Assembly (NCBI GenBank): GCA_965261965.1 | Contig: OZ253489.1 | Coordinates: 2,459,618 to 2,523,617, forward strand | Direction of reading: 5' to 3' | From: Dehalococcoidia bacterium | GTDB taxonomy: Bacteria; Chloroflexota; Dehalococcoidia; Lucifugimonadales; JAGWBF01 | Length of the DNA: 64,000 nt | Shown: in pieces, positions 24,671-53,650 of the stretch | Layout of the letters: each line of letters opens with the position of its first letter | How positions within the stretch are numbered: the stretch's first letter is position 1 | Notes under the pieces: model-generated | Told to the model about the DNA's origin: nothing | Seen by the model: only the letters and a program-made list of their open reading frames with translations | Database searches by the model: none | Position numbers and translations under genes: made by a program

Positions 24671-25488
24671 CCCTCCAGGGCACGGGCAGCACGAACCCCC
24701 ACGGCGAATGGTGGAAGATGGCCCACGCTTGGACGCAACTGTCCGGCCCCGCCGTAACCCTCAGCGACGCTACCGTGGGCAACCCCAGCTTCACGCTGCC
24801 GGACGACGCGGTGGTTGGGACGACGCTGGAGTTCCAGCTTACCGTCACGGATAAGGAGGGCCAGTCCGACTCCGACACCGTGACCGTCACTGTATTGCCG
24901 ACGCCCACTGCCAAGGCAGGCCCGGACCTGACGGGGACGCTGGGCGAGAGCGTGACCTTGCAGGGCAAAGGCAGCACGAATCCCTACGGCAGGTGGCACC
25001 AGATGGCCCACCGCTGGACGCAGCTATCGGGGCCGACGGTCGCGCTCAGCGATCCGACTCGGGGTAACCCCAGCTTCACCGTGCCAGCCGGCGCAGCCGA
25101 TGGTACGACTCTGGAGTTCCAGCTTACCGTCACCGACAGGGAGGGACAGTCAGACTCCGACACCATGATAGTTACGGTCACCGTCATCCTGCCCACGGCC
25201 AAGGCAGGCCCTGACCTGACGGGCGCGCCCGGCGAGAGCGTGACCCTGCAGGGCAAAGGCAGCACGAACCCCTACGGCAGTTGGTACAAGATGGCCCACG
25301 CTTGGACGCAACTATCCGGGCCGACGGTCACCCTCAGCGACGCCACCGTGGGCAACCCCAGCTTCACGCTGCCAGCCAACGCCGCGGACGGAACGACGCT
25401 GGAGTTCCGGCTGACGGTCACCGACGAGGAGGGCCATTCGGACTCGGACATCGTAACCGTGACGGTGCAGAGCGGAGACGGCGGGTAG
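24667..25488 (+). CDS. adhesin 3' reading frame: PKD-like repeats, separated from 19448..24670 by a 1-nt frameshift
   Basis: The units start at 24626, 24910 and 25198 and are 284, 288 and ~288 nt long (AKAGPDLTG..VTLQGKGSTNPYG...WTQLSGP...GNPSFT.P...TLEFQLTVTD.EGQSDSD). The first unit spans the frame break. Confidence 0.75.
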   Translation: MTLQGTGSTNPHGEWWKMAHAWTQLSGPAVTLSDATVGNPSFTLPDDAVVGTTLEFQLTVTDKEGQSDSDTVTVTVLPTPTAKAGPDLTGTLGESVTLQGKGSTNPYGRWHQMAHRWTQLSGPTVALSDPTRGNPSFTVPAGAADGTTLEFQLTVTDREGQSDSDTMIVTVTVILPTAKAGPDLTGAPGESVTLQGKGSTNPYGSWYKMAHAWTQLSGPTVTLSDATVGNPSFTLPANAADGTTLEFRLTVTDEEGHSDSDIVTVTVQSGDGG

Positions 25489-25765: not shown

Positions 25766-27483
25766 CCCTAATCCACCGAAGGACGGCGTGTAGGAGGCCT
25801 GCTGAAGAAACAAAAGGGTGCGCCTCTGAATCTGGGATAATGGTTTTGTAACAGAAAACCGGTCCCAGAAAAGGAGCACCCGATAGATGCTACCACGTAA
25901 CCACCCCGACCGCATCCAAATCGCCTTCGACGATCACCGCCTGGTGGCCAATGCCGGGCTGATCCTTCCCGCCACCCTCGCCCTGCGCCTTGGCCTGCCC
26001 CAACTCCTCCGGAAGGACCTCGACCTCGGCGGCGCACCGGGCCGGGCGAACACCGGCGACAAGATGATGACCCTGGTGGCCTCCGCCCTAGCCGGCGGAG
26101 ATTGCATCGACGACGCCGATGTGCTGCGCGCCGGCGGGACCGCCCGCGTGCTCGGTTTCACGGCTAAGGCGCCCTCCACCCTGGGGACCTTCCTGCGCAG
26201 CTTCAGGTGGGGCCATGTCCGCCAACTGGACCGGGTGAGCCGCGAGTTGCTGGCCCGGGTCTGGAAGGCCGGTGCCGGACCCGGCGACGCGCCGTTCACC
26301 ATCGACCTCGATTCCACCATCTGCGAGACCTACGGACTGGCCAAGGAGGGCGCCCGCCACCACGGCTATACCGGCAAGCGGGGCTACCACCCGCTGCTGG
26401 CCATCGCCGCCGGCACCGGAGACGTGCTGATGTCCCGGCTGCGCGAGGGCCGGGCCAACACCGCCCGCGGCGCCGCCCACTTCCTGCGGGAGACGGTGGG
26501 ACGGGTGCGCTACGCCGGGGCCAACGGACGACTCACGCTACGGGCCGACAGCGGGTTCTACACTCATGGCGTGGTATCCGTCTGCCGCAAGATGGATGTC
26601 CGCTTCTCCATCACCATCCGCCAGCACAAGAGCCTGCGCAATCTCATCGAGGCGATACCAGAGGATGCCTGGACTCCCATTCCCTACTGGATGGACGGCG
26701 CCGCCGATGTGGCCGAGACCACCTGCACTCCGTTCCAGAGTGAACCTGACGCCGCACCGGTGCGGCTCATCGTCCGGCGTGTGAAGCCCACGCCCGGTTC
26801 CCAGCTGGCCCTCTTCGCCTCCTACAGCTATCACGGCTTCATCACCGACCGGGACGGGGAGATGCTCGAACTGGAGGCCGACCATCGCCGCCACGCCGAG
26901 ATCGAGAATGCCATCCGAGACCTCAAGCACGGTGTGGGGTTGAACCATCTCCCCTCGGGCCGCTTCGCCGCCAACGCCGCCTGGCTGGCGGTACAGGTGA
27001 TGGCCCACAACCTCGCCCGCTGGACAGCGCGCATCGGTCTGGGCGAGCAGATCGTGACCACCAAGACCCTCAGACGACGGTTCTTCTCCCTGGCCGGACG
27101 GATCACCCGCTCGGCACGCCGCCTCACACTGCATCTGCCACAGCGCTGGCCTTGGGAAGCCCAGTTCGATCGTGCCCTGGCCCGATTGCGCGCCCTGCCA
27201 CTCCCTGCCTGACGGCGCCCGTCCGCCACTGACTCGCCAGCCAACCCAACGTCCCCGCAAACTCGCGCCAGCCCAGTCCGCGAGCGCCTCTTGCCGTGTC
27301 CTATCCCGCCATCTCGCTCTCCACAGCCACTGTAGGCCGCCATCGGTGCCCCCAAAAGCGCCTGCAGACCGCCCGCCAACCTCCCGTCTACCCAAATTCG
27401 AGCCCGGATCATCGCGCCTGTAACTCCCTCACCCCCTTCCGCTGTCCTCACGCCGTCCATCCCTGTCCATCGGTGGATTCGGG
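25766..27483 (+). mobile_element. IS1380-family insertion sequence, copy B (1718 bp)
   Basis: Identical to 6944..8661 at a constant offset of 18822. Its own 5-bp direct repeat, TTAAG, lies at 25761-25765 and 27484-27488. Confidence 0.9.
25887..27212 (+). CDS. IS1380-family DDE transposase
   Basis: The 441-aa product is identical to that of 7065..8390. Confidence 0.9.
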   Translation: MLPRNHPDRIQIAFDDHRLVANAGLILPATLALRLGLPQLLRKDLDLGGAPGRANTGDKMMTLVASALAGGDCIDDADVLRAGGTARVLGFTAKAPSTLGTFLRSFRWGHVRQLDRVSRELLARVWKAGAGPGDAPFTIDLDSTICETYGLAKEGARHHGYTGKRGYHPLLAIAAGTGDVLMSRLREGRANTARGAAHFLRETVGRVRYAGANGRLTLRADSGFYTHGVVSVCRKMDVRFSITIRQHKSLRNLIEAIPEDAWTPIPYWMDGAADVAETTCTPFQSEPDAAPVRLIVRRVKPTPGSQLALFASYSYHGFITDRDGEMLELEADHRRHAEIENAIRDLKHGVGLNHLPSGRFAANAAWLAVQVMAHNLARWTARIGLGEQIVTTKTLRRRFFSLAGRITRSARRLTLHLPQRWPWEAQFDRALARLRALPLPA

Positions 27484-27804
27484 TTAAGGGAGATGTGGAT
27501 CCAGAATGGGACAGCTAGAGGGATCATCGGATTCCGGAGAGGTGAGCCCGCCCGTACCAGGCACGGCTTCGGCTGGACGGCTGACTATAGTATCAACCCG
27601 AACCTCAACGTGAAGGTCCTTTATTTTGTCAAGTCTGGTGGGCCTAAGGAGACTGTACTGCGAACTTTTCGCTGGGAGGTCCCAATATAGGATGGCATGA
27701 CTGAGACAATTTGGCACAGCAGTCGCAAGGAGCGGGCAGTGGTCACTCGCGCTCCTAAGCCAAAGGGTGCCATCCCCCCCCTCGCTCGACGCATTTTCGT
27801 CTCA

Positions 27805-29877
27805 TCAGACTCCATCAGCCTCCAACTGACACCCCTCCTCACGGAGACGTCGGAGGATTTCAATGGTTCTGAGGCTCTGCTTCTCAGATGGGACCTTAGC
27901 CGGCATCGAGATCGCTACATCTAGTATCCCTTGGTCATCCGGTGATAGGAATCCTCTAGACATTCCCCATGATTTGAGGTCACTCCAGAAAGCAGAACCA
28001 GCTTGGACCACGACCGTCTGAGCCTCAATCCCGTTCAGCATCCGCTGGTCTTTGACCGCACCTCTCTTCTCCTCATTCCGCTCGGCTGAACTGACCATCA
28101 TCCGTTGCAGTTCCCCGGGCCATTGCACAAGCAGTCCCATCACCCGATTCCAGCACGCCTGCTGCTTCGCCCACTCGGTCACGTTCCGCATACCATCTGG
28201 CGGATCGACGATCACGTCATGTACCGCCCTAGCTGCAACCACTAGGCTTCCCCGAAGTTCCAGGGAGATTCCCTGTTCCTGCCATATTCTCTCGAAGTTG
28301 ATTGATCGGCCACTCTGTGCCACGTCATGCGCGAGCTTGGCGATGGCATATGCTACGACGTTCGCCCGGTATCCGCCTTGGTACCAAGGCTGCTCCGTGA
28401 CCAGTCGCTCCACCGCCCTGAACACGATGGCCTTCGCAATCGCCTCTCGGTAGTACATCTCGTTGAAGTCGTTGGGGTGTCTGTTCCACTCCCCTCCAAT
28501 GAACGAGGCAAAGTCAGCAAAGTTCTTCTGTGCTCCCCTGCTCACGACCTCCGGTTTGTCATGCCAAACATTAAGAAACTTGGCGAGGTCCGTCTTGGTG
28601 AACATCTGTGCCTTCGGATATTCGAGGTCGAATCTTCTTCTCTCAGCCTGCGTGAGCCGACCCCGAGCGTCCTGATACTGACCCCGTGCCCGCTCGTAGA
28701 ACCACTTTGATTGTCGGAATGTTCCGTCCTTCGAGGGCGCGTACATTCTCGTAGAGAAGCCCTCGACCCTGATATGGAACGGGTGATTCGAGAAGAAGTC
28801 AGCCGCGCTGACGCGGTTCTGGGTGTTGGCATATTCCGATATCCTGGGGACGATCTCCATTGCCCTGTCTGGATTGACGATTGAGAGCTTCATCTGGACG
28901 AAAACCTTATCTAGGTCCGCCTCCTTGTTGCGAAGCGCCGCATGAATGGACGCCGTGGTCTGCCCTCCATTGACGATCTGAAAGTTGCGCATGCCGGTGA
29001 GGAGCAGGCCGTTAGGAGACTCCACGGTCTCGATGCTCTCTGCGGTGGCCGTAATGCCATTGTTGTAGGCGAAGAACATCTCCGGGTTGTTGTCAATCGT
29101 GTTCCTCAGCCCTCGATTGACATTCCCACGCGCCTGAAGGAACACGCGGACATTCTGTTCCAGCAAGCGGGCACCCCAGCGGCCATAAATCCTCGCGAGC
29201 TGATGCCCAGGAAAGACGGCGAGGTAGGACTCATAGTCGGTCTGCTGCATGTGCGCGGGCAGCACCAAGAGCGGGCCTCCGAACTCATTCAGGTTGACCA
29301 TGTAGTCCTCACGCTCATGCCCAGACGTGACGAAGCGGTGGAGGCGCCCCAAATCCCGTACGCTGTAGGTGACGGGGAGTCCTCGAAGTTGACCGGCCTC
29401 TCGGCCGTCCACCCTGGAGCTGAGCACCCTGTTGGTGACTAGGAACAGCCTCACCTTGGATACGGAAGGCCACCGTGCCGCGATGAGGTCGGCTAGGCCG
29501 AATGCGGGTGCCGATTCCTCCAAGCTGTTCCGAAATGCTTCATCCAGCGACCGGTCGAGAAAGTTGGACAGCCTCTTGAATGTTGCGTCCATGTTGGTCG
29601 CCGTCAGCGTTGCGATCTCCTGTGACTGGCTGAAGTCGGTGATGATCAGACTGAGCACCGCGTCGGAGTTGGCGGGGTCTCCACCATAGCCGTCAACTCG
29701 AATGCCCCGTGGGGAGACGTGGTGAACCCGGTCCGCCGTCTCAATCTCACCGGCATCTATCAGCGATTCCGTGAGTACATTGAAAAAGGCATCCTCCACG
29801 AACCTGCCCTCGGCATCGGCGAGGCTGTGAACCTCCTGAAAGAGTTCCTCGTGGTACTCTGCAATATCAATCGCCAT
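27805..29877 (-). CDS. AIPR-family protein
   Basis: 690 aa. It has the characteristic N-terminus (EYHEELFQEV...EDAFFNVLTE.L.D.GEI...) and an NGGQT motif (FQIVNGGQTTASIH). It is the last gene of the five-gene operon. Confidence 0.85.
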   Translation of the reverse strand: MAIDIAEYHEELFQEVHSLADAEGRFVEDAFFNVLTESLIDAGEIETADRVHHVSPRGIRVDGYGGDPANSDAVLSLIITDFSQSQEIATLTATNMDATFKRLSNFLDRSLDEAFRNSLEESAPAFGLADLIAARWPSVSKVRLFLVTNRVLSSRVDGREAGQLRGLPVTYSVRDLGRLHRFVTSGHEREDYMVNLNEFGGPLLVLPAHMQQTDYESYLAVFPGHQLARIYGRWGARLLEQNVRVFLQARGNVNRGLRNTIDNNPEMFFAYNNGITATAESIETVESPNGLLLTGMRNFQIVNGGQTTASIHAALRNKEADLDKVFVQMKLSIVNPDRAMEIVPRISEYANTQNRVSAADFFSNHPFHIRVEGFSTRMYAPSKDGTFRQSKWFYERARGQYQDARGRLTQAERRRFDLEYPKAQMFTKTDLAKFLNVWHDKPEVVSRGAQKNFADFASFIGGEWNRHPNDFNEMYYREAIAKAIVFRAVERLVTEQPWYQGGYRANVVAYAIAKLAHDVAQSGRSINFERIWQEQGISLELRGSLVVAARAVHDVIVDPPDGMRNVTEWAKQQACWNRVMGLLVQWPGELQRMMVSSAERNEEKRGAVKDQRMLNGIEAQTVVVQAGSAFWSDLKSWGMSRGFLSPDDQGILDVAISMPAKVPSEKQSLRTIEILRRLREEGCQLEADGV

Positions 29878-29883
29878 CGGAAC

Positions 29884-30876
29884 CTACCATCCTGCTAGGG
29901 CTTCGTTCAGAGCATCCACCGACGTTGCGAAAGGCTCGCAGTCGGCCAGCGAGACCGAGTACCGTACATTCGCGACACCCGATCGTATCTCGCCCGAAGT
30001 GATGCGAGGGAAGTTGCCAGTCACCCGATAGATGCGGCTCGCTCCCTCCAGCCAGCGGTTGCTGGAATAGTCGTCCTCCACCCTGTAGCCCGCCGCCGCC
30101 AGCCGCGTTTCGAGAATGCCGCATGAGCCTGGGTCGAGGGAGAAGAGGCGTCCGCGAATCCGCTCGGCCACGTCATGGAGGGTCACACCATGAGGGGCAT
30201 CCTCCGGGGACTCATCCAACTCCATCACATGTAGGAACAGCGAGTCAACGCCGCTCTCGTCCAGCTGATTCTCCGACGTGATTGAGACGGACGGCGTGGC
30301 TCCCCCGCGACGCGTCTTCGCCTCAATCGCAACCCGCGCAATCTCGAAGTCCTTGGGTGCACCCAACGGGCCGAGCCATGCCGTCACAGCAGATGAGGCA
30401 TCTATGCGGGGCAGTAGTAGACGCTCCAACACGAAGATCTCTCCGAGCAATCCCTTTTGTTCCTCCAGAGAGAGAAGGGTGCCACGCCCACCTCTGAGGA
30501 GATGGTGCCATCGCCATGTCCTCATCAGCGCATCAGACACCGCCCCAGCTTCGGACTCGGCCCGCGCGGCAGCAGAGATGATGTCCCGACAGAGGGTCTG
30601 GAAGATGTCCCGCTGGTTCGGGTCGAGCAGCTTGAATACGAGGAGTTGTGTGTCCGACTCATCGGGTGGGGACAGGGTCACCTCAATGTCACGCAGCCTT
30701 GGCAGGTGGGTGGTCGGTGCTGACCCTGTGGCGTGGCGCAGTGTGAGGAGAACGCTTCCGTCCACCCCCCGAGCCCAGAAGAAATCCCAGGGCAGGTTTG
30801 CGTCGACGCGACGAGCCGCGACCGAGTCGGCGATGCTGGGTGGGTCAATCTCCGCCCAAGGGTCTTCACCCATCAT
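29884..30876 (-). CDS. PD-(D/E)XK motif protein
   Basis: The start at 30876 (MMGEDPW) overlaps the Z1 stop by 11 nt. The nuclease-like core is GAPKDFEIARVAIEAKTRR. The ORF-track start at 30999 lies inside the Z1 gene. Confidence 0.75.
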   Translation of the reverse strand: MMGEDPWAEIDPPSIADSVAARRVDANLPWDFFWARGVDGSVLLTLRHATGSAPTTHLPRLRDIEVTLSPPDESDTQLLVFKLLDPNQRDIFQTLCRDIISAAARAESEAGAVSDALMRTWRWHHLLRGGRGTLLSLEEQKGLLGEIFVLERLLLPRIDASSAVTAWLGPLGAPKDFEIARVAIEAKTRRGGATPSVSITSENQLDESGVDSLFLHVMELDESPEDAPHGVTLHDVAERIRGRLFSLDPGSCGILETRLAAAGYRVEDDYSSNRWLEGASRIYRVTGNFPRITSGEIRSGVANVRYSVSLADCEPFATSVDALNEALAGW

Positions 30877-33586
30877 CGCCTCCCATCTCGTCCTCGTCGA
30901 CGTCCTCGCCGAAGTTCTCTCGGAGCCATGTCGTGTTGACCACGTACTCCACCCGCCGCTCCTCCCTGTTGGTTCGCGGAAAACTAATGCCCCATGCAAC
31001 CACTGGCTGTGTTGTGGGATCGCCTTGGCCCTCGGTATCTACGTTAATCAGGTGGACCATCAGAAGGGGCTTCGTCCTCACCTCTCTGTATGCCCGGTCC
31101 GGGTATTGGATCGGCCGGCCCTCGGCCGACCTGCCACTCCTCCCCGGATTCTCCCTGTACGTACGCTCCGCGCGCTCCCGCTCCTCACCGCTGAGGCCCG
31201 TTCGCTCGATCCCTCTGGTCGAGACCCTCTGCCGATTGCTGACCAAGAGGGTCCTCGCGTCGCTCCTCTTCCCGGCGGTTCTGTGCTGGCAACGAATAGT
31301 CCTACCAAGGGATTCGTCCGTTCGGTTGCCCTCACGTTGGCCCACGCTTGCGAAGAGCACGTCCCATTCCGCAAGCTCGTCGTCCTGGCGTTCCTCGATG
31401 TATCGCCTCACCGGTTCCCCGTTGGTCACCAACGAGCCATCGTGGTTTCGGAATTCAATCAGGAAGTCCAGTATGGGAGCCACCGGAACTCCCCGAAGAA
31501 GGAACCCGAAATTGTCCATCTCAGCAGCCTCAATGGGGAATCCGCTCTGACGGAGCCGGTGAGAGAGCCTCCGCGCGGCATTGCGGTCGACCTCCAAGCT
31601 CTCAGCATCCCTTCGAAGCGTGTGGGTCTCGATTAACCTGAACGCCAAGCCGATGCTCACCACTATCTGAGCTCCAGTTCCCATCTTATTGCGTGCGGTG
31701 ACGATCAGGGTATCCGGATGACTCCTGACCTTGAGTCCGAATTCCTCAGGTGTCGCATTGGAAGCCTCCATGCTCCTGAACTCACCTCGCAGTTCCTCAA
31801 TGGACTCTGCGACGTGCTCGTACCAACCCTCTGCCGCCTCCGGCATCCAGATGCGGCAGAGGTCCTGATAGTCCGGTCGATATCCGAACCACCGCCCCAT
31901 CTGCATCAATGTGTCGTACATCATGGAGTTGCGCAGAAAGTAGCTGACCATAAGTCCCTCGAGTGTCAGCCCACGGGACAGTGAGAAGCCGCCCACCGCT
32001 ATGACATTGAGACCGTCCTGCCGATTTCCGCTGTAGTCCAGCGTGCCAGGGGACTGAATGTTGACCTCGACCACCCTGATGGGAGAGGCGGCCTCATGCA
32101 GACGGCTCTGCACCTCAGCCCAATCGAACTCAGTGTCGCGGCACTCACGTTCCCAGACCGCGTGAAGTGCGTTGATCTCTGGGTCAAGGAGCGCTGTCTC
32201 CGGAGGCAGAGCCCCATTCACCCGAATGGAGCGTTGGATGCCATCAAGCTGCCCATGAATCTCATTGCGCAGTTGGCGCTGTACGTTCATGAAGCGGGAC
32301 GCGTTCACCAGCATTGAACAATGCTGTCGTTCGTGTCCTCTGGCGAGTCGAATGGCTCGGCCCAAGACGAAGGTCCTTACAGCATCGGTTAGGGATGGGG
32401 GGATGGAGGAGAGAACGATGTCCTTCTCATGTCTGATGGGAAGGTGGTCTTCGTTGTCCTCAATGGTGCGCATGTATTGGTCTCCGCCCTCAAGGAAGAC
32501 GGCGGTGGCTCCGAAGTAATTCGAGGGAGGATCAAGACTCACGATGAAACTGCGGGGGAACAGGTCCTCACCGCGCATCTGGTCGTCAGTGTCAGGGTCG
32601 ATGAAGATGTTGGCAAAGGGAGTGGCTGTGTATCCCAGGTAGCAACTTCTGCCGAACATGTGGAGGAGTTCGCGTATCTGTCCATTGATCCTTGAGACCT
32701 CGCCAGCTCCATGCCGGATGTTGATGGAGGCGTTGTCTGCTTCGTCATCGATCAGCAGCATCGGCTCATCAATGCTCTCGCCACCTCCCCGAGCGCTGTG
32801 CTCCCTGAGCCACTCGAGCAGATTCTTCAGCGTGCTGCTGTTCTTCTTGATCACGAACACGGCGGGCTCGGTGAGGTTCTGAAGGGGTATCCCGACGCCG
32901 GTTGCCGTCATCTTGTTAAAATCCCGGATGGTGTTGGTGAATGTGACCGGACGCCTCGTATGGTCGAATCGACCAACCCCCACGAACATGTCATCTTGCC
33001 TGCTCAGCAAGCGTGCGCTGTCCCGGCCCACGAAACCCTCGTCGATTCGTCGCTGTGTCTGGCTTCGCAGGTTGTTGTGGACACCCGCGATTACTACGAT
33101 CAACTTGTACCCTGCATCCGCGGCCTTGCATATAAGGCCCGCATAGTTGGCCGTCTTGCCCGATTGCACATGCCCAACAACCATCCCGCGCCTATCCCAA
33201 GGTCCATCCCTCAGAGGGTCCTGCATCAGTCCGAGCACACGTTCGGTGACGTCATCCAGCGTGTTGATCGCAGCGGTGGGAAACCCCTCTTGAATGAGGT
33301 GCTGTCTGTAGCGACTCCAGTAGTACGGATCTATCCGTGCCCTGGCAGCGTCCAGCCAGGGTTGGTGGTCACGCTTGATCAGAATGGAGCCGAGATGTTG
33401 GGTGATGCTCACACGTTCTTCGAACCGCTTTGCGAGCCTCTCCGCATCGTCCTCGGTGACACCCTCGAATATCGGCAACTGGCAGAGGTCCCCAATCAAC
33501 TTGCGGATATCCTCACCAGTCGGCCCCTGTTGATTGGCGAGAGCCGCGGCCACCATGCTTTCGAGGTTTGAGAGAGGGTCAGTCAT
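30866..33586 (-). CDS. Z1-domain P-loop NTPase
   Basis: 906 aa. Walker A is GHVQSGKTANYAGLI, followed by VIAGVHNNLRSQTQ. The Walker B-like motif is LLIDDEADNAS. Its start overlaps the upstream stop (ATGACTGA). Confidence 0.85.
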   Translation of the reverse strand: MTDPLSNLESMVAAALANQQGPTGEDIRKLIGDLCQLPIFEGVTEDDAERLAKRFEERVSITQHLGSILIKRDHQPWLDAARARIDPYYWSRYRQHLIQEGFPTAAINTLDDVTERVLGLMQDPLRDGPWDRRGMVVGHVQSGKTANYAGLICKAADAGYKLIVVIAGVHNNLRSQTQRRIDEGFVGRDSARLLSRQDDMFVGVGRFDHTRRPVTFTNTIRDFNKMTATGVGIPLQNLTEPAVFVIKKNSSTLKNLLEWLREHSARGGGESIDEPMLLIDDEADNASINIRHGAGEVSRINGQIRELLHMFGRSCYLGYTATPFANIFIDPDTDDQMRGEDLFPRSFIVSLDPPSNYFGATAVFLEGGDQYMRTIEDNEDHLPIRHEKDIVLSSIPPSLTDAVRTFVLGRAIRLARGHERQHCSMLVNASRFMNVQRQLRNEIHGQLDGIQRSIRVNGALPPETALLDPEINALHAVWERECRDTEFDWAEVQSRLHEAASPIRVVEVNIQSPGTLDYSGNRQDGLNVIAVGGFSLSRGLTLEGLMVSYFLRNSMMYDTLMQMGRWFGYRPDYQDLCRIWMPEAAEGWYEHVAESIEELRGEFRSMEASNATPEEFGLKVRSHPDTLIVTARNKMGTGAQIVVSIGLAFRLIETHTLRRDAESLEVDRNAARRLSHRLRQSGFPIEAAEMDNFGFLLRGVPVAPILDFLIEFRNHDGSLVTNGEPVRRYIEERQDDELAEWDVLFASVGQREGNRTDESLGRTIRCQHRTAGKRSDARTLLVSNRQRVSTRGIERTGLSGEERERAERTYRENPGRSGRSAEGRPIQYPDRAYREVRTKPLLMVHLINVDTEGQGDPTTQPVVAWGISFPRTNREERRVEYVVNTTWLRENFGEDVDEDEMGGDDG

Positions 33587-35060
33587 CCGGTAACTCCTCG
33601 TTGCAGTCTTCCTTCAGAATATGCTCCGTGCGCTCCCAGTTCGAGCGGAAAGGCTCCGCGACCCTCATCATGGTAAGCACGTCCTCGATTGACTTCATCC
33701 TTTTGCTGAGGTGAGTAAATGTCGTCACTGCTGCATAGCGCAGCGCCTGCTCCGAGGTAGCGCTGCCAACTACTGAGTCCACGTCGCCGCCGAGGTCGGA
33801 AAAGAGCGCATCCATCGGTAGCGACGCCCCTGCGACCTCAATTACTCTGCGGAGGTCGCCCCGTGCCTCTGGGGGCAATCTGGACAGAAGGTCAAGGACC
33901 ATTGGGTGCTCATCGTTGATTCGGTAGAATATCTGGTTCTTGTCCTGAATCCTGTTCCAGACGGGGATGTGGTTCTCCTTAATGAGCCTTCGGCCTCGGG
34001 TCCGGTAAACTCTCTTTGAATTTGCTGCCAGCGGCTCGATGATGCGGCGCAACCGTTCTCGAACCGGCGGTGGCAGCTGCGCAGATGCCTTCTTCACATC
34101 AATCTTCCAGGCTGCATCGAGCGCATTCGGCATATCGATGCGGACGCGCGCCAGCTTCGTGAGCTCCGTTTGACGCGCCAAGCCAAACCATGTGCCATGA
34201 ATGATCAACCGCCGCTCCCTGTACACGTAGAAACCCTGGTTCCTGAGATAGCCCTCCGGTCCTGCGTAGTGTTCCCATTCTGCGGGTGTGACCTTCCCAT
34301 GGTGCGGGAGGGTGAATGCCTGTACCAGCACGTCCTCATGTGCAACTCGAATTCGCTCCTTAGGGCCTGCAATCGTCGCTGAGTGGCTGGAATGGAAGGG
34401 ATCAAAGGGATCCAAGGACCGGTTGTTCATCTGAATGCTGACCCTACGGCGTCCCGGTTCACCGGAGAGGAAGCGATGGAATACCAGCTCTAGGTGGGAC
34501 CGGGCCTCATCCATCTGCCGCACAAAGTCAGTCATATTCCGACCGGAGTCTCCATCATCTGTTCCGAGGCCGAGTTCCTCCCAAACAACGAGTGTCCCAC
34601 TTGCTCCAAGAAACTCCGTCCAAGGGATGGATGTCAGGTCGTCAGGTATCTGGACTTGCCACCTGCCTGACTCGGCAATTCGGTCCAAGTCCCATCGGGC
34701 AATCGCGGTAGCTCCCTTGGTTCGCGTAACCACAGTGACTACACGGCATTGGGAAAATGAGGCCGTCTTCAAGCCTAGACCAAAACGGCCGAGATCGGAC
34801 TGCGCCCTTTCCTCCAAGGGGCTGCGGCTCCCCAGTCGCATTGCCTCTAGGAGTTCCTCTTCGGTCATCCCCACTCCGTCATCCAGAATGCCAATCTTCA
34901 AGTCGGGTGCTTCCAGACTTGCGAGTATCTGGATTGTCTCCGCCCGTGCCGCTATGCAGTTGTCCACGAGATCGGCAAGGGCGGTGCTCAGCGAGTATCC
35001 GATGGCCCGTATGCTTTCGATGAGTGGAGATGGCTTGGGTGGAATCTCAAGGACGCGCAT
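33579..35060 (-). CDS. GHKL-superfamily (MORC-like, HATPase_c_3) ATPase
   Basis: 493 aa. The N-box is ALADLVDNCIAA, G1 is LDDGVGMTEEEL and G2 is GRFGLGLKTAS. It overlaps the methyltransferase stop by 14 nt. Confidence 0.85.
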   Translation of the reverse strand: MRVLEIPPKPSPLIESIRAIGYSLSTALADLVDNCIAARAETIQILASLEAPDLKIGILDDGVGMTEEELLEAMRLGSRSPLEERAQSDLGRFGLGLKTASFSQCRVVTVVTRTKGATAIARWDLDRIAESGRWQVQIPDDLTSIPWTEFLGASGTLVVWEELGLGTDDGDSGRNMTDFVRQMDEARSHLELVFHRFLSGEPGRRRVSIQMNNRSLDPFDPFHSSHSATIAGPKERIRVAHEDVLVQAFTLPHHGKVTPAEWEHYAGPEGYLRNQGFYVYRERRLIIHGTWFGLARQTELTKLARVRIDMPNALDAAWKIDVKKASAQLPPPVRERLRRIIEPLAANSKRVYRTRGRRLIKENHIPVWNRIQDKNQIFYRINDEHPMVLDLLSRLPPEARGDLRRVIEVAGASLPMDALFSDLGGDVDSVVGSATSEQALRYAAVTTFTHLSKRMKSIEDVLTMMRVAEPFRSNWERTEHILKEDCNEELPDD

Positions 35061-36966
35061 TTATCACCCCAGTTCCCGTGGCACACGAGGCGCGAACGGG
35101 GCATTCATCGCACTTGGGAGCGCGGGCCGTACAGACCATCGCACCTAGGTCTAGCAGTGCCTGATTCCATTGCGCATCTGCTCCGCTGTGTCCAGCCAAT
35201 TCACGTAGGGAGAGCCTGAGCCGCCAGTTCGGTTGGTTGGAGCCACCCAACAGCCTACGAGCTATTCTCACGGTGTTTGTATCCATCAGGACGCTGGAGC
35301 GCCCGAAGGCGAAACAGAGCACAGCGGAAGCTATATAGTCTCCCACGCCTGGGATAGTGGTCAGTTCCTGCCAGTTGTCGGGAACCGTTCCTGCCAGCCT
35401 GTCCCTGACGAACTCCGCCGCAGAAACCAGATTCGCAGACCGCCAGTGGAGGCCGAGCGAGGCCAGCATCGGCGCCAGTCCTCTCCAGTTGCCCAAAAAT
35501 GAATCCGGGGTTTCACCAAGACTGAGGAGGTTGTCCGCGACCCGGGCCACTTGGTCAGCCCTTGTGCGGTGGAGGCACATTTCCAATAGCAGAATCTGCC
35601 AGGGGTTCAGATTGGGACGCCTCCACGGAAACTCCCGTTTGTTTTCCCTGAACCACCTGGCGAGGTCGTCTTGGAAGGATATCCCGTTCGCCGGTTGACG
35701 GCTGGTGGTCCCAGCATTGACCTCCCTGTCTTCGAGAGCATCTCTCACCGACGAGGCTATTGCTGAAGCGAGCAGAGGGGGAACAGCATTGCCTATCTGC
35801 TGATACCTGCTCGATGGGTGGCCCGCAAACCGGAATCTATCTGGGAAGGTCTGAATTCTGGCCGCCTCTCGTATGGAGAGGGTTCGGTCTTCCCTTGGGT
35901 GAATGTACCAATAACCATCCTTGGCTATATGGGCGGTGATGGTCCTTGACAGGCCATCGAAAGACAATCTCAGGTATTTGTCGTTGAAAATGTCTGACCG
36001 GTATCTTCGCAAGTGTTCCGGTACATCCAGATAGATGTCACCGGGTTTCAGCAATTTGTAGATTTCAGCATCGTCCGGTCGGACCGATCTCGTTACGTGG
36101 TCACGAACAAGCAGAGCTTCGGTGCCTCTTAGTCCTGTGCGTAACGATCTCGCAAGCGCCGAGGTCGGTGGTCCCTCATAGATCTGGGCCTCGTCTCGAA
36201 CACCTGCTTGCACTACCGGCAGGTCTCCGATAGCCTGTCCAACTGTAGGTCGCCTTCCTATGGGCTTAGGCCACTCGAACTCCCCATCCTCCGCGATTCC
36301 AATCACAAAGAGTCTCGACCTATGCTGCGGAACGCGGTACCTCCACGCCTCCAACACCTGTACGTGCACCCCATATCCCCTGCTCGACAGTTCGTCCATC
36401 AAAGCGATCAGCAATGCTCCTCCTTGTGCTTGAGCGAAGTTCGGAACGTTCTCGAAGAGCATTGCCCGCGGGTGCAGGCGGTCAACGACGGCAAAGAAAC
36501 TGCGCCAGAGGTCGGCTCTTTCGTCGCGCGGGCGTCGGCTCCCTCTCCTCACCAAGTCACCGATCTTTGAGGTGCCAGCCGTAGAGAATGGCTGGCATGG
36601 AGGGCCGCCTGCAAGAAGGTCTACGGTTTCGATGCCCCAATCGTCCAGCTGACAAAGGAACTCAGTGGGGCTGGAAAGGTCCCCGGTCCATGTTAGACCC
36701 TGAATGTTCGCAGCATGAGTCTCCATCGCCACGGGATCGGAATCGGCGGCGGCAACCACTGAGAACCCCGCCTTCTCAAGTCCCAGGCTCAATCCCCCGG
36801 CTCCACAGAAGAGATCTATGGCCCACGGGCGAGGTCTGCTCGCGAGCCACATGCGCACACCGGCATTGTCGTTCGGGTCGGGGGAACTGCAGTGAGGGTC
36901 AAGGCTGATACGCGGTCCACGACGGACCGCAACCCCGTACCGTGAATTGCGTTTGGTGCCATCCAT
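35047..36966 (-). CDS. DNA (cytosine-5) methyltransferase fused to a MutY/Mig-like HhH-GPD [4Fe-4S] glycosylase domain
   Basis: C5-MTase motifs are DLFCGAGG, GGPPCQPFS, FENV, QHRSRLF and QIGNAVPP (aa ~48-400). C-terminal aa ~431-639 carry the HhH IPGVGDYIASAV, the Asp in MDTN, and CX6CX2CX5C (C612, C619, C622, C628). Confidence 0.9.
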   Translation of the reverse strand: MDGTKRNSRYGVAVRRGPRISLDPHCSSPDPNDNAGVRMWLASRPRPWAIDLFCGAGGLSLGLEKAGFSVVAAADSDPVAMETHAANIQGLTWTGDLSSPTEFLCQLDDWGIETVDLLAGGPPCQPFSTAGTSKIGDLVRRGSRRPRDERADLWRSFFAVVDRLHPRAMLFENVPNFAQAQGGALLIALMDELSSRGYGVHVQVLEAWRYRVPQHRSRLFVIGIAEDGEFEWPKPIGRRPTVGQAIGDLPVVQAGVRDEAQIYEGPPTSALARSLRTGLRGTEALLVRDHVTRSVRPDDAEIYKLLKPGDIYLDVPEHLRRYRSDIFNDKYLRLSFDGLSRTITAHIAKDGYWYIHPREDRTLSIREAARIQTFPDRFRFAGHPSSRYQQIGNAVPPLLASAIASSVRDALEDREVNAGTTSRQPANGISFQDDLARWFRENKREFPWRRPNLNPWQILLLEMCLHRTRADQVARVADNLLSLGETPDSFLGNWRGLAPMLASLGLHWRSANLVSAAEFVRDRLAGTVPDNWQELTTIPGVGDYIASAVLCFAFGRSSVLMDTNTVRIARRLLGGSNQPNWRLRLSLRELAGHSGADAQWNQALLDLGAMVCTARAPKCDECPVRASCATGTGVINARP

Positions 36967-36995
36967 GCGACTATTTATGCTATCCTCTCAAAACT

Positions 36996-37442
36996 CTATA
37001 GAGGCGCGGACCACTCGCCAACCCAGTGGACATTCCCGGCGCTCTCTGCCGCCCGGTGAAATCTCTGGTCGGCGGTCCACAACTCACAGCCAAACTCCTC
37101 CGCCAGCGCCAAGTAGTGGGCATCGTACACCGCCCCTTGGCTGAGTTGACTCGCCAACTCTAGCGCCCTCACATGAAGACTTGGCGACTGGTGCAGTTCG
37201 AGCCGGGACCCGAGTAGCCGGGTCATCATGCGGGCGCTGTTGCCGACGCTCAACTGGCCGCGTGTCACCCTCCTGTGAAGGGCGTTAGCAACCTCGAATG
37301 GCATCAGGTAGGGGGCGATGCGAGTTACGTCATGGCTAACCCAAGATTCGAGAACCGCGTGGGCCTTGTCAGAGTCTTCCTCATCAACGAGCCACTTGAC
37401 GGCTAGACTCGCATCAACGACAACAACCCCGTTCATGCCCAT
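36996..37442 (-). CDS. vapC: PIN-domain toxin VapC
   Basis: 148 aa with the PIN pattern VVVDASLAVKW...E...YDAHYLALAEE....WTADQRF. It overlaps the antitoxin stop. Confidence 0.8.
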   Translation of the reverse strand: MGMNGVVVVDASLAVKWLVDEEDSDKAHAVLESWVSHDVTRIAPYLMPFEVANALHRRVTRGQLSVGNSARMMTRLLGSRLELHQSPSLHVRALELASQLSQGAVYDAHYLALAEEFGCELWTADQRFHRAAESAGNVHWVGEWSAPL

Positions 37443-37735
37443 GCCTCGGTTTCGGCATTCCGAAGCTCTCTGGCCTCCCTGATCAGGTCGGCAGAGTTAC
37501 CAGGCAGAGGCTTACCACCGAATATCTCCTGGCGGAGTTCTGCAAACATCTCATGGTCTGGCTTGTCAGCCAGCAGTTCGCCAGCGCCACCATACTCGTC
37601 CTTCGTCAACTCCCGGTCGATGGCGGCTTGGCAATACCCGCGCATGCTGACGCCCTTGAGCGCGGCGATAACCTTCAGCCGACGTTGAAAGGCGGGGTCC
37701 AAGTCCAAGGTGAGCCTTTTCTTCTTGGTTTCCAT
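37433..37735 (-). CDS. RHH/CopG-type antitoxin
   Basis: 100 aa. KKRLTLDLDPAFQRRLKVIAALKGVSMRGYCQAAI is a ribbon-helix-helix signature. The gene is paired with the PIN gene. Confidence 0.65.
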   Translation of the reverse strand: METKKKRLTLDLDPAFQRRLKVIAALKGVSMRGYCQAAIDRELTKDEYGGAGELLADKPDHEMFAELRQEIFGGKPLPGNSADLIREARELRNAETEAWA

Positions 37736-40032: not shown

Positions 40033-40090
40033 GTAGGCCGCCGGCGAGTTACCCCGCGTTAGCGGGGCACTTTTCCGTCGGCCCCCTTCC

Positions 40091-40124
40091 GAACCGGACG
40101 TGCGGCTTTCACCGCATCCGGCTC
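40091..40124 (-). ncRNA. group II intron domain V
   Basis: The minus strand reads GAGCCGGAUGCGGUGAAAGCCGCACGUCCGGUUC: 34 nt with the AGC triad, a 2-nt bulge and a GAAA tetraloop. Confidence 0.85.
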
Positions 40125-40149
40125 TCCAGTGTCATTGTGGGTAGTGTCA

Positions 40150-40183
40150 GTAAAAGCAAGTACCGCGCCGGGTGGCGCGGTAC
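40150..40183 (-). terminator. intrinsic terminator after the intron-borne lipoprotein gene
   Basis: The minus strand reads GTACCGCGCC-ACCC-GGCGCGGTAC (10-bp perfect stem) followed by TTGCTTTTAC. It lies 26 nt after the stop at 40209. Confidence 0.5.
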
Positions 40184-40208
40184 GTTGTGGTTATGGGTCG
40201 TTAGGCAG

Positions 40209-40802
40209 CTAGGAACAACTGAGGACTTCCAGCACGGCGTCGTCAAACGCCTCAATCGCCCTGCCGAGTGTTGTGTAAGCTTCCTGCATCTCCGGGCCTT
40301 TGCGGTACTCGTTCCAAGCCTCTTCGTCCTCATACGACAGAGAACGATGTTCCTTTGCGAACCTCACTATCAGTTGGTCCAGCGCCACACTGGCCTCTAA
40401 GGAATCTCGAAGTTCCGCCGGGGGCTCGTTATTCTCAAGGAAGTCGATGACCTTCTGCACCCGGTCTGCCTTCTCGCCCCAGGTGGCTACCTCCTGTTCG
40501 GCGGCAACGAGAGCGCAAGCTGCCTCCATGTACTCCCGCGTCTCTCTGCTGATCCCTGTGCTCTCACCGACCTCCGCAGCCTCCGTAGGTTCGGGCGTCG
40601 GAGTGGACGCCGGGGGCGATGTTGCGGTTGAGGGGCTGCCAGTTGTGGCACCAGGGGTGCTGGTGCTGGACGAGCCGCCACAGGCGGTCAGGGCCAGGGT
40701 TAGCGCAGCCAAGCCAAGCAGCAGGACGAGGATGGGCCATTGACGGCCCTGGGCCTGCTGCGGGGAGCGTTGCCTATTCGTATGCTCAAATTCAGAAGTC
40801 AT
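40209..40802 (-). CDS. putative lipoprotein encoded inside the group II intron
   Basis: 197 aa with a signal peptide and lipobox (LALTLALTAC), a Ser/Thr/Pro linker and an alpha-helical acidic domain. GGGAGGA lies 7 nt before the ATG. It sits between the IEP stop and domain V. Confidence 0.65.
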   Translation of the reverse strand: MTSEFEHTNRQRSPQQAQGRQWPILVLLLGLAALTLALTACGGSSSTSTPGATTGSPSTATSPPASTPTPEPTEAAEVGESTGISRETREYMEAACALVAAEQEVATWGEKADRVQKVIDFLENNEPPAELRDSLEASVALDQLIVRFAKEHRSLSYEDEEAWNEYRKGPEMQEAYTTLGRAIEAFDDAVLEVLSCS

Positions 40803-40834
40803 GCGCCATCCTCCCTGTGCAGGGGTTAACTGGT

Positions 40835-40863
40835 ATTTTACCAGAGTACGGCGGAAATGTCAG
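40835..40863 (-). promoter_or_regulatory. sigma70-like promoter for the intron-borne lipoprotein
   Basis: The minus strand reads CTGACA - 17 nt - TAAAAT, with TGG just upstream of the -10 box. It ends ~32 nt upstream of the ATG at 40802. Confidence 0.45.
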
Positions 40864-40988
40864 TTACCAGAGCGTGAACTCTGGTGGGACTAACGGTATC
40901 CGTATCGTGACTATGTGCCTGCTGGGGAGAGCGTTGCTGGGGCCTCAGTCGTCTGAGTCGTGACACTACCTACTGTTGCTTGCGCGGA

Positions 40989-44964: not shown

Positions 44965-44997
44965 GTCAGTTCTCCTTTCTGAATTCTGAATGTCGGT

Positions 44998-45231: not shown

Positions 45232-45264
45232 GGTCTCCTCTCCTTTCCTGGGTCTTGCGCCGCG

Positions 45265-46321: not shown

Positions 46322-46416
46322 GGAAAATCTCCTTCCTTATGTGTATTGTGTGAGTGCGCGGAGGCGTGGAGTCCCCTGCGTTAGGCCGGACGGCATGGGC
46401 CGCCGGTCGTGGGCGG

Positions 46417-46923: not shown

Positions 46924-46955
46924 GTCGGCCTCCTTTGGTATCGGTGAAAACAGGA

Positions 46956-51656: not shown

Positions 51657-53650
<1,994 letters not shown>

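Follow-up and report, generated by a model that had tools for sequence, protein, structure and literature searches.

A Dehalococcoidia member of the Mza defense family carries a cytosine methylase fused to a glycosylase domain

INTRODUCTION

What does an operon do that joins a cytosine methylase to two ATPases, a nuclease, and an AIPR protein? In the 64,000-nucleotide stretch of Dehalococcoidia DNA that we analyzed (hereafter, the window), positions 27805-36966 hold five such minus-strand genes, encoding a C5-methylase, a GHKL ATPase, a DEAD/Z1 ATPase, a DUF4420 PD-(D/E)XK nuclease, and an AIPR protein. A sequence-only reading had described them as a restriction-like defense system, which we judge correct, and had tied them to comparative genomics of Dcm, MORC, Z1, and AIPR genes, a link that holds as well: it leads to Iyer, Abhiman, and Aravind (2008), who predicted a methylase-linked MORC/paraMORC restriction-modification (R-M) operon layout (PMC2292703). 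Here, we find that the cassette is an intact, ordinary member of the known Mza defense family, in the cytosine-methylase-linked form that is widespread in many bacteria, and that its one under-described feature is the fusion of a DNA-repair domain to the methylase.

RESULTS

Five intact and tightly packed genes

The features of the locus are as follows:

35047-36966, minus strand: C5-cytosine DNA methyltransferase-glycosylase fusion, 639 aa
35746-36819, minus strand: methyltransferase domain of the fusion, aa 50-407 (Pfam match and motifs; catalytic Cys124 in PCQ)
35077-35676, minus strand: glycosylase domain of the fusion, aa ~431-630 (PDB phmmer and diagnostic residues)
33579-35060, minus strand: MzaB, MORC/MutL-like GHKL ATPase, 493 aa (by Pfam, PADLOC, NCBIfam)
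30866-33586, minus strand: MzaC, SF2 DEAD-type ATPase with Z1 domain, 906 aa (by Pfam, PADLOC, NCBIfam)
29884-30876, minus strand: MzaD, DUF4420 PD-(D/E)XK nuclease, 329-330 aa (by Pfam, PADLOC, invariant residues)
27805-29877, minus strand: MzaE, AIPR family protein, 690 aa (by Pfam, PADLOC)
36996-37442, minus strand: PIN-domain toxin candidate (Pfam PIN 4e-9), accessory rather than core
37433-37735, minus strand: RHH/ParD-like antitoxin candidate upstream of PIN, 100 aa (ParD 0.0027, under the cut-off)
25766-27485, plus strand: insertion sequence (IS), 1,720 bp, with DDE_Tnp_1_4 transposase, 100% identical to a copy at 6944-8663

The gene packing claimed earlier is borne out by the open reading frame coordinates: the methylase gene overlaps mzaB by 14 nt, mzaB overlaps mzaC by 8 nt, and mzaC overlaps mzaD by 11 nt, while a 6-nt gap separates mzaD from mzaE. 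The 11-nt overlap is counted from an ATG at 30876, which gives mzaD 330 aa; the public gene call uses the next ATG (30873; 329 aa), with an overlap of 8 nt. A TTG start at 30999, that of the longest mzaD frame, was rejected as an artefact. All five proteins align over their full length with orthologues in other genomes, and hence none of them is truncated; fusion orthologues align to the methylase from residue 1.

Profile searches with Pfam and PADLOC, which had been suggested as a check, placed all five proteins in the claimed families and matched the PADLOC models of MzaB to MzaE. The operon structure had been read correctly as well. The catalytic signatures proved intact throughout. In the methylase (Pfam DNA_methylase 1.6e-57), we found FCGAGG53-58, PCQ123-125, ENV172-174, QHRSR214-218, and GNAV392-395, with P122/P123/C124/Q125 and E172/N173/V174 invariant in 27 fusion proteins. 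MzaB (Pfam HATPase_c_3 2.9e-33; PADLOC 1.9e-76; NCBIfam 3.2e-97) carries DLVDN30-34, DDGVG60-64, and GRFGLG91-96, and its PDB matches, to MORC4, MLH1, and PMS2, are weak. MzaC (Pfam Z1 1.5e-80; PADLOC 1.4e-147; NCBIfam 2.6e-171), which has 219 relatives in GTDB representative genomes, carries GHVQSGKT138-145 (Walker A K144) and DDEAD280-284. In MzaD (Pfam DUF4420 5.8e-66; PADLOC 6.5e-23), the nuclease residues E145/E150, D175, and E184-x-K186 (329-aa numbering) are invariant in 58 homologues, and in MzaE (Pfam AIPR 2.5e-101; PADLOC 2.7e-81), so is NGGQT303-307 of the AIPR core in 46 homologues.

A sequence search of the PDB returned no relatives of MzaC, MzaD, or MzaE. Using AF2 models, we found no PDB fold neighbor for MzaD (pLDDT 84) and no significant fold match for MzaE, whose model is only moderate (pLDDT 67.5). 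Pfam profile and fold searches detected no B3 or other recognized DNA-reading domain in these proteins.

Four genes match the effectors of the Mza system

By these profile matches, strong for all four, the genes other than the methylase are MzaB-E of a system that already has a name, MZA/mzaABCDE (PADLOC; NCBIfam NF041932-NF041935). The NCBIfam bit scores of 326, 571, 128, and 353 (MzaB, C, D, and E) lie well under the MZA equivalog cut-offs of 850, 1500, 420, and 1050, so that carrying function over from the systems of Escherichia coli and Salmonella is an extrapolation. The earlier description of a predicted system with no worked-out mechanism stands in its second half, as we found no detailed mechanism or solved structure for Mza in the literature or the PDB, and a December 2025 review puts mzaABCDE among "others" (PMC13223576). 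It falls in its first half: the Mza family has a name and has been validated against phages. The system goes back to Gao et al. 2020 by the citation in PMC9523054, where the tested systems are described as a sigma-factor-like MzaA plus B-E. The methylase fusion occupies the place of mzaA here.

Against T4(C) and T4(hmC), E. coli mzaABCDE gives 10^3-10^4-fold restriction, and against T4(ghmC) ~10-fold, with growth arrest absent at any multiplicity of infection (bioRxiv 10.1101/2022.06.16.496414). In the same study, purified MzaD degrades DNA in vitro, and the D187A and P297A mutants are weakened; C, hmC, and ghmC DNA are cut alike, which counts against methylation gating. In Listeria, mza-carrying strains show modification at GCAGC (PMC10687267), and a separate study counts a REBASE methylase among the components of mzaABCDE (bioRxiv 10.1101/2024.07.12.603236).

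These phage data bear on an explanation that we consider very unlikely, namely a system that depends on modification (Type IV-like) or works by abortive infection, where B-E would hit foreign modified DNA or sense infection, the AIPR protein would be a toxic effector killing or arresting the cell, and the methylase would act only in regulation or addiction. The restriction of hmC and ghmC T4 fits it; however, unmodified C DNA draws the strongest protection, which argues against modification dependence, and the E. coli system arrests no growth. MzaE is related to AbiU (PADLOC 2.1e-22), and earlier work classes AIPR as an abortive-infection family whose N-terminus is predicted to be a HEPN RNase (PMC3506569), yet the AF2 model of AIPR_N (Pfam 1.1e-38; aa 31-181) is alpha/beta, as opposed to the all-helical HEPN bundle, with weak best fold matches that are restriction-endonuclease-like (RPB5-N, McrC; E >= 0.25). 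Likewise, the PIN toxin pair directly upstream in the window would suit a toxic system, but just three of the 80 related loci have it (L011, L012, and L018).

A glycosylase domain fused to the methylase

The sequence-only reading overlooked a C-terminal MutY/EndoIII-type HhH glycosylase domain in residues ~431-630 of its "Dcm". Pfam EndIII_4Fe-2S and HHH matches mark it, as do a cluster motif of the form Cys-x6-Cys-x2-Cys-x5-Cys (Cys612/619/622/628), Glu462, the HhH IPGVG538-542, Tyr544, and Asp562-x-Asn564. Against NCBIfam, the fusion matches dcm (9e-52) and, far under the equivalog cut-off, mutY (9.4e-35). PDB phmmer matched the cores of Geobacillus stearothermophilus MutY (1e-28) and Mig.MthI (1KEA; 6.9e-28) equally well; the C-terminal 8-oxoG-recognition domain of MutY is absent in this comparison. 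Scoring diagnostic residues against PMC2714593, we found the Mig-type residue at five of six positions (F446, R449, R467, A470, and Y544), of which the R449 and Y544 equivalents also occur in B. stearothermophilus MutY. At the position of MutY Q182, where Mig has Leu187, the domain holds Gln, and an adenine or other specificity is thus possible.

Across 74 methylase-bearing loci, 20 have only a glycosylase, 41 only Vsr, 1 has both, and 12 have neither, a complementarity with Fisher p = 6e-9 for loci that are not independent of one another. We read the fused domain as a putative built-in repair of T:G mismatches arising from 5mC deamination, with a predicted specificity for T:G. Of 26 representative fusions, 22 have lost the catalytic glycosylase residues and retain no more than the four Cys and some Arg/Trp positions.

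A transferred block with an exchangeable methylase

The B-C-D-E order is kept in essentially all of the 80 related loci, from many phyla. A C5-methylase match is present in 74; five of the six others lie on contigs cut off at the cassette or within it (L014, L027, L031, L052, and L067), and the sixth, L062, also lacks a B match. L062 aside, a C5-methylase is adjacent wherever the contig reached far enough, at a position and on a strand that differ between loci, and every methylase checked for its Pfam family belongs to PF00145. In L001-L009, the limits of the DNA similarity (80-87%) coincide with those of the five-gene block, and the flanks are unrelated: the genes travel together, as the transferred unit, in at least nine genomes. 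The earlier claim of mobile-element cargo beside a VapBC pair and an IS was broadly right. The neighbors are a PIN gene, ending 29 nt before the methylase ATG on the same strand, with a weak RHH/ParD-like partner, and an IS whose terminus lies 320 bp beyond the mzaE stop; what is transferred is the five-gene block itself.

In L016, Dcm-Vsr-EcoRII-like genes replace the fusion, with a breakpoint 32 nt upstream of mzaB, and B-E are uniformly ~90% identical to those of L008, with no divergence hotspot. As an unrelated methylase can be swapped in with B-E unchanged, B-E probably have no sequence specificity of their own; it most likely lies in the methylase, or else B-E reads 5mC itself. A complete Type II R-M system with its own endonuclease adjoins several relatives (L016, L081, and L082), where the methylase may belong to that system and not to Mza.

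Such swapping would be expected if MzaB-E were self-contained, with a trigger unrelated to host 5mC, and the methylase-glycosylase were a separate orphan or R-M-type module that co-travels because defense genes cluster. The variable methylase position and strand, the adjoining R-M systems, the sigma-factor-like MzaA of validated systems (PMC9523054), and 65%-identical fusions standing without Mza genes in L085 (beside a DISARM-like helicase and DUF1998) and, in another context, L084 all point that way. Against it, the methylase linkage is far above chance clustering, the methylase and mzaB overlap translationally, the exact block is co-transferred, and divergent fusions in Actinomycetota mostly have an MzaB homologue directly after them, with Mza genes at 25 of 35 fusion loci versus only a few of 45 plain-methylase loci. 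We therefore hold two independent neighbors to be unlikely.

The opposite arrangement, a Type III/Type I-like holoenzyme with the methylase as a physical subunit giving the MzaB-E complex its sequence recognition for both methylation and restriction, seems improbable to us. It would account for the lack of a specificity hotspot in B-E upon methylase change and for the coupling of the methylase gene to mzaB. The Fe-S/HhH domain, kept despite lost catalytic residues, would fit a structural or docking role, and mzaB directly follows the fusion across Chloroflexota and Actinomycetota. However, similar B-E are accompanied by methylases that are only 26-30% identical, that may or may not have the extra domain, and that lie before or after B-E on either strand, so that a conserved docking surface is hard to see; the EcoRII-type methylase of L016 is even paired with B-E 90% identical to fusion-paired ones.

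DISCUSSION

In the reading that we lean toward, the cassette is a member of the Mza family that restricts DNA in an ATP-dependent manner, gated by methylation. The Dcm-type methylase would place 5-methylcytosine as a mark in a short motif of the host DNA, and the fused Mig-like glycosylase would take T out of the T:G mismatches left when 5mC deaminates, so that the cassette would carry its own Vsr-equivalent repair. MzaB-E would be the effector: MzaC, an SF2 DEAD/Z1 motor, may translocate on or loop DNA, as proposed for the related CglI/NgoAVII N-proteins; MzaB may be a MutL/MORC-like GHKL clamp that couples ATP-driven dimerization to nuclease licensing; the PD-(D/E)XK protein MzaD would cut unmarked DNA; and the AIPR protein MzaE could sense the state of the DNA, act in regulation, or serve as a second effector. 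Our analysis shows which genes are present, that their motifs are intact and their order is kept, that their linkage to a C5-methylase is constant, that glycosylase and Vsr complement each other, and that the methylase module is swapped; the 5mC self/non-self gating, the roles of MzaB, C, and E, and the T:G specificity of the glycosylase are inferred. For homologues, other studies have shown anti-phage activity without growth arrest, an MzaD nuclease active in vitro, and, in Listeria, an active Mza-linked methylase. Should the tested E. coli and Salmonella systems work and be non-toxic without a cognate methylase, 5mC gating would not be obligatory.

Comparison with known systems

The operons of Iyer et al. 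2008 share the theme of GHKL+S5 ATPase, SF2 helicase, RE-fold nuclease, cytosine methylase, Vsr-type repair, and AIPR, and DNA looping was proposed for their GHKL proteins; that paper is comparative genomics only, gives Vsr-superfamily endonucleases as the repair partner, and, in its accessible part, holds no mention of an HhH glycosylase fused to a methylase (PMC2292703). Mig.MthI (1KEA) has the same MutY-like catalytic core, the Mig size, the Fe-S cluster, no 8-oxoG-recognition domain, and the common F, R, R, A, and Y residues, but it is free-standing and has L187 in place of the MutY-like Gln, whereas the activity here is predicted and the domain is fused. Vsr and Mig, like the fused glycosylase, each accompany a 5mC methylase, and the fused glycosylase complements Vsr across loci.

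DISARM class 2 resembles the cassette in its methylase (PADLOC MTase_II/DrmMII; DrmMII 1.2e-81), and in L085 a helicase and a DUF1998/MZB protein precede the related fusion; in the window, however, DrmA, DrmB, and DrmC genes are absent beside the methylase, and its neighbors are MzaB-E. CglI/NgoAVII likewise pair a C5-methylase with a DEAD-Z1 ATPase, the N-protein, which is required for cleavage; it hydrolyzes ATP in response to unmethylated GCSGC sites, consistent with translocation (PMC4267653). They differ in having no GHKL or AIPR protein and in a PLD-B3 nuclease that itself reads sequence (PMC4267653), unlike the PD-(D/E)XK protein of the window.

Closest is MZA/mzaABCDE itself, with the same four effectors in the same order (GHKL ATPase, Z1/SF2 ATPase, DUF4420 PD-(D/E)XK, and AIPR) and a sigma-factor-like MzaA where the window has the Dcm-glycosylase fusion. 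An identical layout in L083 bears generic RefSeq names ([quoted passage not shown]), and the annotated plasmid locus L081, with a PGAP-named MzaE and an MzaC homologue only ~37% identical to that of the window, has the same core as the cassette described here.

Gene content and family membership of the cassette

The operon at 27805-36966 is real, intact and correctly dissected. An ORF listing recovered all five minus-strand genes at the coordinates that the sequence-only reading had assigned to them, and the gene junctions agreed as well: a 14-nt overlap between the methylase stop and the mzaB start (35047/35060), an 8-nt overlap between mzaB and mzaC (33579/33586), a 6-nt gap between mzaD and mzaE and, for an mzaD ATG at 30876, an 11-nt overlap between mzaC and mzaD. 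From the next mzaD ATG, 30873, which the public gene call uses, this last overlap is 8 nt. The longest-ORF listing starts mzaD at a TTG at 30999 instead, a start that we rejected as an artefact because the Pfam match, like every orthologue alignment, sets in close to 30876. Pfam bore out the proposed family placement (DNA_methylase, HATPase_c_3, Z1, DUF4420 and AIPR/AIPR_N; E-values 1e-33 to 1e-101), and every catalytic motif that had been listed is present in the five proteins and, for those motifs that we checked, invariant among homologues. MzaB contains its N, G1 and G2 boxes, MzaC both Walker A and DDEAD, and the E, D and ExK residues of MzaD are likewise invariant among homologues. Each of the five proteins can be aligned over its full length with orthologues, and the operon is therefore intact. 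A promoter scan found no sigma-70-like promoter, a consensus that may not apply to the host, probably a Chloroflexota, and a terminator scan returned fewer terminator-like sites than in shuffled sequence.

The four proteins encoded downstream of the methylase match the named Mza families throughout, while all four score far under the NCBIfam equivalog cut-offs.

Matches of MzaB-E to PADLOC, NCBIfam and Pfam models
MzaB: PADLOC 1.9e-76; NCBIfam MzaB 3.2e-97 (326 vs equivalog cut-off 850); Pfam HATPase_c_3
MzaC: PADLOC 1.4e-147; NCBIfam 2.6e-171 (571 vs cut-off 1500); Pfam Z1 1.5e-80
MzaD: PADLOC 6.5e-23; NCBIfam 3.1e-37 (128 vs cut-off 420); Pfam DUF4420 5.8e-66
MzaE: PADLOC 2.7e-81; NCBIfam 2.6e-105 (353 vs cut-off 1050); Pfam AIPR and AIPR_N

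In place of a sigma-factor-like MzaA, the first gene encodes a C5-methylase-glycosylase fusion, and tblastn with the sigma-70-like MzaA of a Thalassospira plasmid (L081) gave no match in the window. Because of this first gene and the missing MzaA match, we classify the cassette as a methylase-headed variant of the known MZA family. RefSeq names for the identical dcm-GHKL-Z1-PD-(D/E)XK-AIPR layout are generic only (locus L083). The methylase by itself could be filed under DISARM through its match to DrmMII, a label that we rejected because the Drm partners are absent: there are no DUF1998 or PLD genes in the cassette, and the resemblance is confined to the methylase.

A glycosylase domain fused to the methylase

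The sequence-only reading had overlooked that residues ~431-630 of its "Dcm" constitute a MutY/EndoIII-superfamily domain (Pfam, NCBIfam). Against the PDB, this domain matched Mig.MthI, a G-T mismatch enzyme (1KEA; 6.9e-28), just as well as it did the MutY of G. stearothermophilus (1e-28). It carries the HhH-GPD Fe-S hallmarks (IPGVG538, D562, E462 and C612/619/622/628, with the cluster motif Cys-x6-Cys-x2-Cys-x5-Cys), and the protein stops right after the Fe-S loop, and therefore has no MutY 8-oxoG-recognition domain. We scored Mig (T/G) versus MutY (A/G, A/oxoG) character, looking among other things for an F/R/Y thymine pocket, with the diagnostic residues from PMC2714593. Five positions hold the Mig-type residue (F446, R449, R467, A470 and Y544), where R449 and Y544 are shared with the B. 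stearothermophilus MutY, and A470 is an Ala at the MutY V45 position, as in Mig. The sixth position (MutY Q182, Mig L187) holds a MutY-like Gln, Q602. Catalytic Glu462 and Asp562 are retained, and fused homologues with as little as 36% identity conserve the residues listed here.

Distribution, block transfer and methylase exchange

A scan of species-representative genomes yielded 219 MzaC relatives, 80 of whose loci we examined. The nearest relatives are Dehalococcoidia MAGs (93% identity), which points to a Dehalococcoidia-like host, and those at 50-80% identity come from Acidimicrobiia, Alphaproteobacteria, Nitrospirota, Planctomycetota and other groups. The B-C-D-E order was unchanged in essentially all 80 loci. 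A C5-methylase match was found in 74 of them; among the six others, five lie on contigs that run out at the cassette or within it, and the last is locus L062. The linked methylases range from 26% to 87% identity and lie upstream or downstream, on either strand. In the nine closest genomes, the DNA similarity is bounded by the five-gene block (window ~27804-36980) with unrelated flanks, and the five genes form a discrete transferable block. In the window, the G+C content of the cassette is 58%, versus 65-67% in the flanks. Two of the related loci are decayed: in L075, mzaC and the methylase gene are each interrupted by insertions of ~1.2-1.5 kb, and in L018, which lacks mzaD/E, a deletion joins mzaB codon ~50 to mzaC, while a PIN/antitoxin pair 86-93% identical to that of the window is retained.

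A module swap bears on how methylase and effector proteins relate. In locus L016, Dcm-Vsr-EcoRII-like genes stand where the fusion would be, with a breakpoint relative to locus L008 that lies 32 nt upstream of mzaB. The B-E proteins of these two loci are nonetheless uniformly ~90% identical, with no local divergence hotspot, and this uniformity despite the exchange argues that a recognition domain matched to the methylase does not appear to exist in B-E. The subclade presents an effector module for which a C5-methylase is present wherever the contig allows a check, yet which tolerates wholesale methylase replacement. Two alternatives to the mechanism that we favour below concern the methylase. 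One holds that two independent modules are merely co-located, which we deem unlikely. In the other, which we deem very unlikely, the methylase would be the recognition subunit of a Type III-like holoenzyme.

T:G repair is nearly always encoded in the cassettes, either as Vsr or as a Mig-like glycosylase fused to the methylase. Beside the methylase (n = 74 loci), we found the glycosylase only in 20, Vsr only in 41, both in 1 and neither in 12, a complementarity with a Fisher p = 6e-9 among loci that are phylogenetically related. This pattern supports a role of the fused domain in T:G repair.

Fusions beyond the clade of the window

We searched 1.84 billion representative proteins for further fusions. 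Among the best 150 matches, 26 full-length proteins span both domains and ~18 further fragments cross the methylase-HhH junction. Only 4 of 27 aligned proteins (that of the window and the fused homologues P0121, P0122 and P0187) retain the catalytic Asp along with the Tyr and the HhH hairpin; what remains in the other aligned fusions is the set of four cysteines plus a few Arg and Trp positions. Of 35 full-length fusion loci sampled in a genome scan, mostly from Actinomycetota, 25 had Mza homologues within 10 kb of the fusion, usually with MzaB directly downstream; in the same scan, Mza neighbours of plain methylases were rare. A separate Vsr is present in most of the 25 Mza-linked loci. These data fit the idea that an active fused glycosylase replaces Vsr and a degenerate domain does not. 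Outside the clade of the window (loci L017, L046 and L086-L122), most methylase-HhH fusions no longer have the HhH hairpin or either catalytic acid, Asp or Glu, but their four Fe-S cysteines are all still there; a separate Vsr is usually encoded at these loci as well.

Locus L085 (4699-11920) has a DISARM-like gene order, in which an SF2 helicase of 1,124 aa and a protein with a DUF1998/MZB domain are directly followed by a 65%-identical fusion. With this active-type fusion in another setting, the methylase-plus-repair unit is a module that more than one effector system uses.

Genomic neighbourhood

The sequence-only reading had placed the operon next to a VapBC pair and an IS, as cargo of a mobile element. 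The IS is indeed there, ending 320 bp downstream of the cassette. Of the proposed VapBC pair, the toxin candidate matches PIN (4e-9), and the antitoxin candidate is weak, with ParD (0.0027) and RHH (0.079) matches that are both sub-cut-off. The PIN gene and its weak RHH-like partner, a 100-aa ORF that lies upstream of the PIN gene and overlaps it by 10 nt, are located directly upstream of the cassette on the same strand, and the pair is common to only three of the 80 related loci. Transport as cargo is plausible; no tRNA was found in the window.

Mobile elements and repeats in the window
877-2346: IS5-like element with a 463-aa DUF772/DDE_Tnp_1_6 transposase
6944-8663 and 25766-27485: two 1,720-bp IS copies, 100% identical, with a 441-aa DDE_Tnp_1_4 transposase
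12720-12775 and 27636-27691: 56-nt repeat, 84% identical, weak hairpin, outside the transferred cassette
~40035-43250, minus strand: group II intron, bounds from Rfam and comparison with L003
40028-40126: Rfam Intron_gpII match
40989-42797: RT/maturase/HNH ORF of the group II intron
43924-59346: integrative-element-like block with a DUF6094 methylase, RadC, a Rad52-like protein and a CHC2/Toprim primase
52084-53583: IS110-family insertion in the integrative-type block
57394-59346: large serine recombinase
59791-59903: third, fragmentary occurrence of the 1,720-bp IS (its end), shortly before an aldo/keto reductase ORF (60709-62208)
59888-60700: partial IS5-like copy, 93% identical, inverted, ~57.5 kb away

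The identity of the two complete IS copies suggests recent activity. A helicase gene and the group II intron lie further upstream of the cassette, and beyond them comes the integrative-element-like block. The syntenic locus L003 lacks exactly the intron segment and so reveals a precise insertion beside the helicase gene. The recombinase region is also found near the cassette in L001, L011 and L012. We considered the 56-nt repeat downstream of mzaE as a cassette part and rejected it: it is only weakly structured and absent from all 163 loci compared. Its copies lie ~115-130 nt downstream of two minus-strand genes, a 548-aa ORF with no Pfam match and mzaE.

Several other features of the window were recorded. 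The two IS5-like copies bracket most of it, and the aldo/keto reductase ORF has a transposase-like stretch at its N-terminus. At positions 19448-25488, the gene for a surface-type protein of 1,740 aa (domains fn3, cadherin and Big; 12-nt tandem repeat at 19909-20088) is followed by an ORF of PKD repeats that consists of three ~285-nt units. An OGG-type 8-oxoguanine glycosylase gene (OGG_N and HhH-GPD; 5465-6397) sits in a low-GC3 stretch (877-6397) with minus-strand ORFs that are otherwise unannotated.

Structure searches and proposed mechanism

In a PDB sequence search, MzaC, MzaD and MzaE returned nothing at E <= 1, and MzaB gave weak matches to MORC4, MLH1 and PMS2 only. For the AF2 model of MzaD (pLDDT 84, pTM 0.65), Foldseek returned spurious kinase-lobe matches only (E >= 0.1) and hence no structural neighbour, and no DNA-reading fold could be assigned to the N-terminal beta domain from model and search. 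The MzaE model (pLDDT 67.5, pTM 0.37) came from a shallow alignment of 46 sequences at 72-100% identity, and its Foldseek search against the PDB gave no match better than E = 0.25; in this moderate model, AIPR_N looks alpha/beta, with no obvious HEPN bundle. Pfam at E <= 10 gave nothing usable for the unassigned parts of MzaB, MzaC and MzaE. A ParB/DndB-like nature of the AIPR "NGGQT" core is stated in PMC3506569; we set this candidate aside, as that statement is its sole backing and our analysis did not confirm it.

The sequence-only description of a restriction-like system with no worked-out mechanism stood as regards mechanism: our literature search found no paper resolving that of Mza, and a December 2025 review puts mzaABCDE among "others" (PMC13223576). 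The family's defence and the nuclease activity of MzaD had, however, already been reported for homologues. Cloned E. coli Mza gave 10^3-10^4-fold protection against T4 with C or hmC DNA and ~10-fold against glucosyl-hmC T4, there was no growth arrest, and purified MzaD degraded DNA (bioRxiv 10.1101/2022.06.16.496414). As an alternative mechanism, it seems to us very unlikely that AIPR drives a system of modification-dependent or abortive type.

On balance, we lean towards the cassette being a restriction machine that is gated by 5mC, depends on ATP and brings its own T:G repair. MzaC would act as the motor, MzaB as a MutL/MORC-like clamp and MzaD as the nuclease; the source of specificity would be the methylase or a direct reading of 5mC. 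A further proposal, to which we give rather little weight, is that MzaB-E could be a sequence-agnostic 5-methylcytosine reader, pluggable onto any Dcm-type methylase. It would account for the link to C5-methylases at every evaluable locus, for the replacement of the native methylase by an unrelated one with B-E unchanged, and for MzaA-headed systems, which could rely on the host's own Dcm. Such a reader would patrol DNA via ATP-driven translocation or clamping, and cutting would be licensed only in long stretches devoid of 5mC. The Fe-S/HhH domain is, on its residues, probably catalytic in the window's clade, and most other fusions no longer have these catalytic residues. On this proposal, it could have a second role as a conserved handle that couples the methylase, or else its mismatch/repair intermediates, to the MutL-like MzaB. 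A coupling of this kind would echo the known MutL-Vsr partnership.

By itself, the locus adds little: its defence family is named, widespread and partly characterised and has hundreds of copies, of which the 219 MzaC relatives represent this subclade alone. The tolerance of the effector module for methylase replacement does narrow the possible self/non-self mechanisms for Mza. The parts worth follow-up are the methylase-glycosylase fusion and its complementarity with Vsr.

Comparison with known systems

The MZA system has been described as validated, with a sigma-factor-like MzaA (PMC9523054). This sigma-factor form is found at the Thalassospira plasmid locus, where genes for a restriction endonuclease and a Dcm come right after the PGAP-named mzaE. 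The methylase-linked architecture was predicted in 2008 as a restriction-modification theme that combines a GHKL ATPase, an SF2 helicase, an RE-fold nuclease and a cytosine methylase, often with AIPR and T:G repair (PMC2292703). All components of this MORC/paraMORC theme (Iyer 2008) are found in the cassette and are syntenic in related loci. The closest DEAD-Z1 biochemistry is that of CglI/NgoAVII, where the ATPase is activated on unmethylated sites and required for cleavage (PMC4267653). A PLD or B3 domain, as in the PLD-B3 restriction protein of those systems, occurs in none of the five cassette proteins (Pfam); the likeness lies in the DEAD-Z1 ATPase, which the cassette encodes as well.
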